Of a DNA stretch of 64,000 nt, positions 62,024 through 63,999 are shown in pieces. The DNA is from Gammaproteobacteria bacterium (GTDB lineage: Bacteria > Pseudomonadota > Gammaproteobacteria > JABXHR01), in assembly GCA_013373515.1 (NCBI GenBank), contig JABXHR010000016.1, positions 20,000 through 83,999 on the forward strand. Direction: 5' to 3'. Positions within the stretch are counted from its first letter, which is position 1; every line of letters starts with the position of its first letter. Made by a program: the position numbers and the translations under genes. Under the pieces are notes generated by a model. It was not told the DNA's origin, ran no database searches, and saw only the letters and a program-made list of their open reading frames with translations.

Positions 62024-62325
62024 CGTGCTAGTGACATCTAGCACTTGCTGATATCTCTCTTCCTACCCAATGGCTTGGCGTCAACTCAAAGTGGTTTTGT
62101 TTTAACCGTTTGATTGCTCGTTCGCAAAACCCAAAAAATTACTCCCCGGAAAGTTAATCAAATTCAGCTTAGGTTACGTACCTTTCTGCCTAGTGTGATT
62201 TGTTAAAAATATTCGCTAATTTGTTGAAATAAATAATTTTATGTCCTAAACCTTAGTGGCGGCTCAGAGAAGATCTGCTCGAAAGATCGACTGACCGCAC
62301 GCATATTTTGGTGGGGGAACACATT

Positions 62326-63999
62326 GTGAAGCGTAAACAACAATCGGTGGTGAAAAAGACACCTTTTAAACAAACGGCGATTTCATTCGCAATCGCGATG
62401 GCATTGGGGATGGTCTCGACTGCACATGCAGAGTTGGGCACAGTCAAGGCTTACGACATCGATGAGCGGGTCAATTTTGGGTCAACAACAACCATTGATG
62501 TGATCTCGAAAGTGCGGGCAGCGGATGCAGATGGCGAGAATACGGGCGATCTTCAAATTGAAGTGCTCAATCAACCCGCTGGCGTGGAATTGATCGACAA
62601 ACAGATTCGTTTCACTGCACCGACTGGGAGCTTGGTCGCTGCAGATCAAACCGTGGTGATCGACTACCGATTGTCGGCAGAACAATTTAGCGATGAGTTA
62701 ATCGTGCAAGCCCGTCAGCCAGATTTGGCTGGCTCTGCGCTGTTTGTTGATACGACCGATGCGGTTGCGCCCTCGGAGGCGAACCAGTTTTTCAGCCAAC
62801 CCGCCAATACGGATCAATACGCATGGGGCTATGACACCAATGATGGTCAGGCAGGGTTTTACGGCTTGAGCTACGGCTTGGATGTGAGTTCACTCGGATG
62901 GTGCCAGGATGCAAAGTATGATGTTTCGGCATCATTTAAAGCGAAGAAGTTATCTGGCGCCACTGCGACAAAAGCGGCGATTGCCATCGGAAATCAAGGC
63001 GATACAGTTGCAAAGTTGTCTGAAGCCACACTCCTATCACCGGCTGTAGAAGTCGATAGTTCTTTGACAATTCAGGAAACAGAAAAAGTCACGTCACAGG
63101 GTGGTGGCAGCACCATCATTCCAGTGGTCATTTATGTATCTAGACAAGATGACCTCAACAACATTACACCGTCAAAATATGAGTGGATGCCAATCGAGCT
63201 GACGCTCGAAGCTGGAATCGATACCACAGGCTGTGCGGCGCAAACAGATGATGGCACCTTGACCATTACTATTAGCAATGACTTTGACGGCGACGGGAAA
63301 TCAGACTCATCTACTGATCCGGCATTGAACGACCTCGATGATGATCAAGATGGTATTCCAGACGCTGACGAGGCGCCTGCGGATAACCCGAATTTGGACA
63401 CTGACGCTGATGGACTGCCTAATCGCATTGACTTGGATTCGGATGGTGACGGTATTCCAGATCAGCAAGAAGGCGATGTTGACACTGATGGCGATGGTCG
63501 TCCCGATTTTCTTGATACCGACTCAGACAATGACGGTGTGCCCGACACTTTGGAAGCGTTTCATACACGTGAGGTGACTGATCCGGTGGGTTCGAACCAA
63601 GATCAGGATCATGGTCGGACGATCTTTGACACGGACCGAGATGGCGCACCGGACTATAAGGACTTAGATTCTGACAATGATGGCATCGCCGATGTGGTCG
63701 AAGTGCTGTTGACCGATAATGCGGAACCCTATGGCGAGTCTGACGGAGGAGAGCTGGCGGGCGATCCGGATGACCGCGATGTCGATGGCTTGGCAAATAT
63801 TTGGGATCTGGATTCGGACAATGACACCATCCCCGACATCGTTGAGGGGGATTGTAAGCCCACCAACAACGACTTTGTGTGTGCCGCGGATGTCGCTGCC
63901 GCGATCTACGCTCAAGGGGACACCGAGGGACTTACTGCAACCACGGGTTGGGCGGATGCTTTCCGTAAACCCAGCAATTTAGTGCCCAATACCGATCTT
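62326..63999 (+). CDS. Secreted protein with thrombospondin type-3-like calcium-binding Asp-rich repeats (5' partial; continues beyond the window). Not present in the ORF track.
   Basis: GTG start with RBS TGGGGGA. Signal peptide ...AISFAIAMALGMVSTAHA. At least 558 codons open to the window edge. Repeats include DTDGDGRPDFLDTDSDNDGVPD, DLDSDGDGIPDQ, DLDSDNDGIADVVE and DLDSDNDTIPDIVEG. Confidence 0.65.
   Translation, partial: MKRKQQSVVKKTPFKQTAISFAIAMALGMVSTAHAELGTVKAYDIDERVNFGSTTTIDVISKVRAADADGENTGDLQIEVLNQPAGVELIDKQIRFTAPTGSLVAADQTVVIDYRLSAEQFSDELIVQARQPDLAGSALFVDTTDAVAPSEANQFFSQPANTDQYAWGYDTNDGQAGFYGLSYGLDVSSLGWCQDAKYDVSASFKAKKLSGATATKAAIAIGNQGDTVAKLSEATLLSPAVEVDSSLTIQETEKVTSQGGGSTIIPVVIYVSRQDDLNNITPSKYEWMPIELTLEAGIDTTGCAAQTDDGTLTITISNDFDGDGKSDSSTDPALNDLDDDQDGIPDADEAPADNPNLDTDADGLPNRIDLDSDGDGIPDQQEGDVDTDGDGRPDFLDTDSDNDGVPDTLEAFHTREVTDPVGSNQDQDHGRTIFDTDRDGAPDYKDLDSDNDGIADVVEVLLTDNAEPYGESDGGELAGDPDDRDVDGLANIWDLDSDNDTIPDIVEGDCKPTNNDFVCAADVAAAIYAQGDTEGLTATTGWADAFRKPSNLVPNTDL

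Follow-up and report, generated by a model that had tools for sequence, protein, structure and literature searches.

An exported, probably surface-tethered thrombospondin type-3 repeat protein with an orphan head and a conserved upstream region in a gammaproteobacterial genome

We analysed a 64,000-nt stretch of DNA (the window, positions 20,000 to 83,999 of contig JABXHR010000016.1 in the Gammaproteobacteria bacterium assembly GCA_013373515.1), which ends inside a long open reading frame (ORF) starting at GTG 62326; unless stated otherwise, coordinates are those of the window. This frame is a real gene for an exported, probably cell-surface-tethered protein of 735 amino acids (aa), built around a stalk of thrombospondin type-3 (TSP3) repeats, and GenBank already lists its product as a hypothetical protein. 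We determined the full length of the ORF, its domain layout, the number of its repeat motifs, its family matches and the purifying selection acting on it. Overall this is an ordinary type of bacterial surface protein, unusual only in its N-terminal region (the head), which has a single known relative, and in a very conserved region of 200 bases upstream of the gene. The coordinates of all features are collected in Table 1.

Translation from GTG 62326 to 63999 gives 558 codons with zero stops, as the initial annotation of the window had stated, and the other five frames of the same interval carry 15–48 stops, the longest open run being 170 codons. That the frame had escaped the list of ORFs is likewise correct, and is explained solely by the omission from that list of ORFs running off the window. 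The closest in-frame stop 5′ of the GTG is TAG 62254–62256, TTG 62308 and GTG 62311 being alternative possible starts; GTG 62326 is the start used by both the GenBank and the Logan gene calls. Extension of the sequence downstream, which the initial annotation had proposed, recovered the entire gene at 10001–12208 of a fetched locus (L001) that is identical to the window over an 11,675-nt overlap. The window fragment is 100% identical to a 735-aa protein (P0001, GenBank NVK29671.1, annotated as ‘MAG: hypothetical protein HWE20_01615 [Gammaproteobacteria bacterium]’) on the same 111-kb contig, of SRR11434631. The window carries the 5′ three-quarters of the gene and only 177 of the 735 aa lie past it, so what had been called a big protein is instead mid-sized. 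The calculated pI of the mature product is ~4.

The evidence for selection comes from a 2.3-kb Logan contig from another sample (L084), which we found by searching with the 164-aa membrane protein encoded directly upstream. Its copy of that membrane protein is 92% identical, and downstream of it an ortholog of the 735-aa gene begins and runs for 395 codons, at 81% aa identity and gap-free, to the end of the contig. Identity by codon position between the two genes is 83.5, 90.6 and 46.1% and the ratio of nonsynonymous to synonymous substitution rates (dN/dS) is about 0.03–0.1, therefore the gene, including its orphan head, is under purifying selection. Taken alone the head is 77% identical between the two proteins, with both of its cysteines conserved.

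The N-terminus reads as a classical Sec-type signal peptide, in agreement with the initial annotation, and runs in the order MKRKQQSVVKKTPFKQ (basic), TAISFAIAMALGMVST (hydrophobic) and AHA/E, where the slash marks the cleavage site; it has no lipobox cysteine, and AHA/ELGT is kept in L084. The roughly 300-aa N-terminal region described ahead of the repeats is also there, as residues 36–318. Searches with this head as residues 36–320 brought up no family in Pfam or NCBIfam, even at E <= 10 and also when it was split into two halves, and no PDB sequence. An exhaustive phmmer search of 1.84 billion representative proteins returned only the protein itself, and no relative of the head was found in species-representative genomes or JGI metagenomes; a word-indexed search with residues 36–320 missed even the identical full-length protein, and its negatives for short orphan queries are uninformative. 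AlphaFold2 single-sequence models of residues 36–320 and 140–322 consist mostly of strands, at low confidence (pLDDT 42–44). Foldseek matched the 140–322 model to nothing in the PDB at E <= 0.001, with TM-scores <= 0.36; its top matches, MSCRAMM collagen-binding domains with TM-scores of 0.33–0.35, were not counted as evidence. Kinship with the head of the JDVT-CTERM TSP3 proteins discussed below was rejected too (hhalign probability 0.2%). Relative-free among the 1.84 billion representative proteins, yet under clear purifying selection, the head is a real, lineage-restricted domain. Presumably it binds a ligand; the ‘adhesion’ role first proposed for the protein is a guess, the head being without a detectable family.

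Residues 319–636 of the full protein hold 13 DxDxDGxxDxxD motifs on a looser reading, ten of them within the window, such that the ‘at least five’ repeats of the initial annotation were correctly seen and undercounted. With the strict pattern DxDx[DN][GTK]xx[DN]xx[DEQ] there are nine in-window matches, against a mean of 0.02–0.08 and a maximum of 2 in composition-preserving shuffles, and Asp makes up 22.6% of residues 321–660. In the Pfam TSP_3 search that had been suggested, the core segment 352–412 alone scores 28.5 bits (E 1.2e-6) with TSP_3 (PF02412) and 25.9 bits with TSP3_bac (PF18884), the Pfam gathering cut-off for both being 25 bits. A homology search returned 3,965 proteins, all matching the repeat region only (21–41% of the query), and most of these carry PF02412 or PF18884 plus anchoring modules: OmpA, outer-membrane beta-barrels, type IX secretion system (T9SS) C-terminal domains, VWA-like domains and JDVT-CTERM. 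The initial description of a secreted or surface protein with TSP3-type calcium repeats is upheld by these results, that is by a core passing both Pfam cut-offs, by matches to thousands of TSP3 surface proteins and by the recovery of a tripartite membrane-sorting tail. In bacteria, TSP3 repeats that serve as Ca2+-binding linkers are known from envelope and secreted proteins, including TraB, OmpA-type proteins and Saccharophagus enzymes (PMC12045341, PMC2386152), and from their motifs the repeats described here are predicted to bind Ca2+ as well. The stretch CKPTNNDFVC, which had been taken for a Cys-containing module following the repeats, is present but is most simply explained as a short insert that separates two repeats and is bracketed by Cys, probably closed by a disulfide bond; an intra-repeat disulfide in bacterial TSP3 repeats is on record (Dai et al. 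2017, as cited in PMC12045341).

Past the window the protein ends with DGAGGGG-LGVMWLALLAALVPL-RRK, a tripartite C-terminal design in which a Gly run flanked by small residues is followed by a transmembrane (TM) helix and by a basic cluster at the extreme C-terminus. Upstream of this tail, and apart from the signal peptide, the protein reads as acidic and hydrophilic up to residue 713, with no other TM segment. GlyGly-CTERM proteins are described in the same terms: their tail has a run of 2–5 or more Gly with small flanking residues, a TM helix and a basic cluster with 0–5 trailing residues, and the rest of the protein has a signal peptide but no further TM segment (PMC3237569). GlyGly_CTERM (TIGR03501) was the top NCBIfam sorting-signal model for the tail in every context scored. 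Its cut-off is 15.5 bits; the last 32 aa reach 16.5, the last 67 aa stay at 14.2 and the whole protein at 10.3. This model misses true members according to the family’s authors (PMC3237569). For tails under the cut-off the curators look for homology that extends through a trusted GlyGly-CTERM instance; the sole ortholog, on L084, stops at residue 395, and among the relatives whose sequences were read, the tails recognised by NCBIfam are JDVT-CTERM, while the other tails tested fall under every cut-off.

As the tail is most like a GlyGly-CTERM signal, membrane anchoring, cleavage by a rhombosortase, lipid attachment and surface display are its most likely fate, and we consider it fairly probable that this is an exported TSP3 protein with GlyGly-CTERM-like sorting which displays its head at the cell surface on a Ca2+-loaded stalk. 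The protein would be exported by the Sec pathway and cut by signal peptidase I after Ala35, giving a mature form of four parts: the lineage-specific, all-beta head (36–318), the stalk (319–636), a disordered Thr/Gly/Asp spacer and the 22-residue tail. Through the Asp side chains of its 13 motifs the very acidic stalk would bind Ca2+, stiffening when loaded, and would thereby keep the head off the membrane, where it could bind a ligand. The tail, with its Gly run, hydrophobic helix and Arg-Arg-Lys, would act as a transient inner-membrane anchor until cleaved by a rhombosortase whose gene would lie elsewhere in the genome, to be followed by attachment of a lipid and, after translocation across the outer membrane, retention at the surface. 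This course of processing and surface retention is borrowed from VesB of Vibrio cholerae (PMC6219818, PMC13393428). Expression would probably be driven from the conserved 200-nt AT-rich region upstream.

Several results weigh against this account. Scored in context, the tail is at or under the curated TIGR03501 cut-off; Pfam found no rhomboid-family gene in 84 kb of the contig (positions 10.6–94.5 kb), there is no rhomboid-like candidate among the multi-TM ORFs of the window, and nothing like the tail occurs on any further ORF of the 74 kb made up by the window and L001, so that the pattern of many clients per genome is unseen locally. The whole 319-aa repeat region scores just 14.7 bits (TSP_3) and 13.3 bits (TSP3_bac), under the cut-off, and neither the window fragment nor the whole protein gave anything above threshold in Pfam and NCBIfam, families surfacing on sub-segments only. 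Given that the TSP3 core passes its cut-offs alone, the whole-protein failure is probably due to the HMMER composition-bias correction on a highly acidic sequence. The head, finally, contributes no known family, structure models of low confidence and Foldseek matches that are not significant.

The sub-threshold GlyGly-CTERM scores in context (10.3–14.2 bits) and the absence of a rhomboid gene from those 84 kb would suit a plain, uncleaved inner-membrane anchor, in which case stalk and head would be periplasmic and the product a Ca2+-binding or envelope-spacing protein instead of a surface adhesin, and TSP3 repeats are found as linkers in the periplasm too, TraB and OmpA-type proteins being examples (PMC12045341; OmpA-domain matches in our homology search). 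We regard this as unlikely, though deserving serious consideration, as the Gly4 run with RRK exactly at the C-terminus is the tripartite design common to cleaved sorting signals (PMC3237569), the isolated tail exceeds the GlyGly-CTERM cut-off and the long disordered Thr/Gly/Asp spacer resembles the unstructured linker of VesB (PMC13393428). Cleavage could also fall to a CPBP (Rce1-like) glutamic intramembrane protease, were the tail a degenerate relative of JDVT-CTERM or MYXO-CTERM: the nearest TSP3 stalks (P0002, P0015, P0023 and P0026) end in JDVT-CTERM above cut-off (28.5 and 33.6 bits vs. 27), these four share a pre-tail motif (I)ITGV(D/S)GG with the 735-aa protein, and among the models scored on the tail MYXO-CTERM ranks second (14.8 bits vs. 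a cut-off of 20). This is very unlikely, however. The hallmarks of JDVT-CTERM are an invariant Cys and a near-invariant Asp-Pro nine residues later (bioRxiv 10.1101/2023.06.07.544157), both absent from residues 700–735; the JDVT-CTERM model (NF033191) gave no match to the tail at E <= 10; and the protease MrtJ is usually encoded beside its single client, whereas no CPBP-family gene is present within 10 kb either side of the 735-aa gene, such that membership of JDVT-CTERM was rejected. There is next to no chance, lastly, that the frame is non-functional, whether as a pseudogene, as an artefact of assembly or as a frame that is open by chance in acidic, repetitive sequence. The protein does stand as one 90%-identity cluster member from one contig among 15 billion proteins, with a head of no family, yet it has 735 codons, a canonical signal peptide and a sorting tail, its start codon and Shine-Dalgarno-like sequence are conserved, and an ortholog from an independent sample gives a dN/dS well under 1 over 395 codons, orphan head included, a result by which this explanation is already effectively refuted.

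Upstream of the gene, the 302-bp intergenic spacer (62024–62325) has a GC content down to 0.32–0.42, compared with about 0.50 in its flanks, and so matches the 300-bp AT-rich leader first described. Its distal part evolves as fast as neutral sites, for which the 79% identity at third codon positions of the neighbouring gene served as proxy, and other intergenic DNA in the L084 alignment is 76–80% identical. The proximal 200 nt are far more conserved than this (P about 1e-13 if neutral identity is 0.79), with a core of 88 nt (62190–62277) that is invariant between the two known loci, and presumably comprise the promoter/operator and 5′ untranslated region of the 735-aa gene. This proximal leader has no Rfam match at E <= 1, no excess RNA folding on either strand (z −0.85 and −0.44) and no sigma-70 consensus, the first two leaving a riboswitch or small RNA unsupported. 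No second copy was found among the loci gathered here, plasmids, species-representative genomes or JGI metagenomes (the core, for the latter two). Inside the core, the direct repeat ATTTGTTAAAA / ATTTGTTGAAA is a candidate regulator-binding site, two-copy short repeats in AT-rich DNA often being due to chance.

It is this proximal part of the leader that is conserved, not the hairpin to which the initial annotation had drawn attention. The hairpin does exist right after the previous gene, one base away from the position first given, but is neither conserved nor beyond chance: three of the seven stem pairs are broken in L084, its fold z-score is −1.5 with 14 of 200 shuffles folding equally well, and the 64-kb window contains 28 perfect 7-bp stems where 23 are expected. 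It lacks a U-tract, received no call in a terminator scan and has no second copy, hence neither a terminator nor a repeated element is supported; it is at most a weak terminator, and a functional role is unlikely.

The 97% identity of the leader could itself be the trace of a recent recombination tract, or of a chimeric join in L084, and not of functional constraint. We lean against this, while accepting it as a possibility: the locus is indeed a mosaic, with a dS of about 0.36 in the flank, a gene body near saturation and a boundary (about 62360) inside the conserved block, which moreover yielded no sign of RNA structure, no Rfam match and no promoter consensus; however, the conserved block corresponds to the sequence immediately 5′ of the start codon together with the first ~35 nt of coding sequence, a chimera would still require both partners to be near-identical to the window there, and the rest of the intergenic DNA in the alignment has no such identity.

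Gene body and flank differ clearly in their divergence from L084. Between 62360 and 63510 (L084 1151–2301) the gene body is near synonymous saturation, using the same codon at 48% of conserved residues against a random expectation of 39%, whereas the two upstream genes use the same codon at 74–81% of conserved residues (dS about 0.36), and the switch falls at about 62360, inside the conserved leader/signal-peptide block. This suggests that recombination exchanged the gene body for that of a more distant allele, a common event in surface proteins and the best explanation of the mosaic; the alternative is that the Logan contig is chimeric. A more far-reaching proposal, which we put forward tentatively and think rather improbable as a whole, is that the head represents a ligand-binding domain of a new fold or family, on a surface antigen or receptor whose gene body is swapped between lineages in a diversifying exchange, and that expression is driven from an unusually constrained 200-nt element of no described RNA family or promoter type. 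The locus is a compact case of contrasting rates side by side, with a spacer at the neutral rate, then an ultra-conserved leader and after it a gene body saturated at synonymous sites. In uncultured marine or environmental Gammaproteobacteria, surface proteins subject to diversifying selection would be expected to show this pattern.

Table 1 Features of the locus of the 735-aa protein, in window coordinates unless stated (Shine-Dalgarno-like site, signal peptide and Cys loop by direct reading of the sequence; spacer from the sequence layout).
Feature	Position	Strand	Remarks
164-aa protein	61529–62023	+	Four predicted TM segments; directly upstream; no Pfam family
Hairpin GTGCTAG-N6-CTAGCAC	62025..62044	+	Two bases after stop codon 62021–62023 of the upstream 164-aa gene
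Distal intergenic part	62024..62125 (102 nt)	+	Fast-evolving; 78.4% identical to L084
Proximal AT-rich leader	62126..62325	+	194/200 nt (97%) identical to L084 (about 913–1112)
Direct repeat ATTTGTTAAAA / ATTTGTTGAAA (ATTTGTTRAAA x2)	62198..62229	+	Start-to-start distance 21 nt; inside invariant core
Shine-Dalgarno-like GGGGGA	62313..62318	+	7 nt before GTG 62326; conserved in L084
Coding sequence of 735-aa protein	62326..64000 (codons 1–558 + one base)	+	533 nt more beyond window
Signal peptide, residues 1–35	62326..62430	+	Basic n-region, hydrophobic core, AHA/E cleavage site
N-terminal region (head), residues 36–318	62431..63279	+	Lineage-restricted; predicted all-beta; Cys193 and Cys303 conserved
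TSP3 repeat region, in-window part, residues 319–558	63280..63999	+	10 DxDxDGxxDxxD motifs; three more beyond window
Cys510-X8-Cys519 loop CKPTNNDFVC	63853..63882	+	Between repeats
Thr/Gly/Asp low-complexity spacer, residues about 645–705	Beyond window		
Tail GGGG-LGVMWLALLAALVPL-RRK, residues 714–735 (22 residues)	Beyond window		Protein ends right after RRK
VanZ-like gene, 122 aa	L001 12229–12597	−	Convergent; 21 nt past stop of 735-aa gene

The gene is flanked upstream by a thioredoxin-fold protein and the family-less 164-aa membrane protein, and downstream by the convergent VanZ-like gene and an AGE epimerase, none of which suggests a dedicated operon partner. Among 5.8 billion clusters the 164-aa protein has just a close ortholog (92%) and a distant relative (29% identity), the latter in an unrelated gene context beside a CTP-transferase-like gene. 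The 164-aa protein was also considered as a sorting protease and rejected, having no family and neither Ser/His nor Glu/His motifs. The VanZ-like gene, which overlaps the start of the AGE-family epimerase gene, is a VanZ family protein in GenBank and scores 21.8 bits in Pfam, below the cut-off of 30.1. The window is chromosomal and includes dnaA-dnaN-recF-gyrB and rpmH-yidD-yidC-mnmE; this replication-origin neighbourhood (20786–28297) has gyrB, recF, dnaN and dnaA on the minus strand followed by rpmH, yidD, yidC and mnmE on the plus strand, and oriC should lie near 24.5–25 kb of the window. GyrB (18408–20759, minus strand) has <=66% identity among the matches listed (best 80 species-representative genomes, over many gammaproteobacterial orders), and the organism seems to be without a close sequenced representative among these. 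Elsewhere in the window, a called gene of 1,082 aa (38522–41782, plus strand) between short-chain dehydrogenase and LysE-family genes has no Pfam match on record, and at or before the window start (1–1835; L088) are a DUF1800/DUF1501 pair, two GGDEF/EAL genes, a patatin-like gene and a HlyU-like regulator, none of them linked to the 735-aa gene.

Compared with known systems, the protein is one more TSP3-repeat surface protein in a class that is very large and little characterised. Bacterial TSP3 proteins (PF02412/PF18884), such as OmpA-type proteins and Myxococcus TraB with their TSP3-linker region and the TSP3-bearing secreted enzymes of Saccharophagus degradans, likewise have tandem DxDxDGxxDxxD motifs, often paired as ‘DTDxDGxPDxxD-LDSDNDGIxDxxE’, in the same kind of acidic stalk or linker of exported, envelope or surface proteins with predicted Ca2+ binding (PMC12045341, PMC2386152). 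Our protein differs in that the head joined to its repeats is known from two sequences only and that its C-terminal tail has a Gly run, with no OmpA domain, beta-barrel, T9SS domain or glycoside hydrolase, and in its sub-threshold whole-protein Pfam scores. By score, the stalk is closest (E 1e-54 to 1e-68) to the four JDVT-CTERM TSP3 proteins named above, of ~770–840 aa, which as here have a signal peptide, a beta-rich head, a long TSP3 stalk and a tripartite tail after ITGV(D/S)GG, whereas their head is unrelated to ours and their tails have the invariant Cys and DP. These four form a family with a conserved beta-rich head of no Pfam family. The type-3 ‘wire’ of animal thrombospondin and COMP has the same Ca2+-binding consensus, belongs to the same Pfam model (PF02412) and also has about 13 Asp-rich motifs. 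In contrast to it, the stalk described here has only one Cys pair and no disulfide ladder, EGF repeats and the C-terminal lectin-like globe are absent, and no PDB chain, thrombospondin included, gave a sequence match at E <= 0.01. With GlyGly-CTERM/rhombosortase clients (TIGR03501) such as VesB of Vibrio cholerae the protein shares the signal peptide, the lack of an internal TM segment, the unstructured linker, the Gly run, TM helix and C-terminal basic cluster, and the gammaproteobacterial host (PMC3237569, PMC6219818, PMC13393428). It differs from them in scoring at the cut-off and not clearly above it, in the partner rhombosortase (TIGR03902) and type II secretion system not being found within 84 kb of the contig, and in its passenger, a TSP3 protein where theirs is a protease or nuclease. 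No examined relative’s tail passes the GlyGly-CTERM model, and the combination of a TSP3 stalk with a GlyGly-CTERM-like tail may therefore extend the presumed range of rhombosortase clients.

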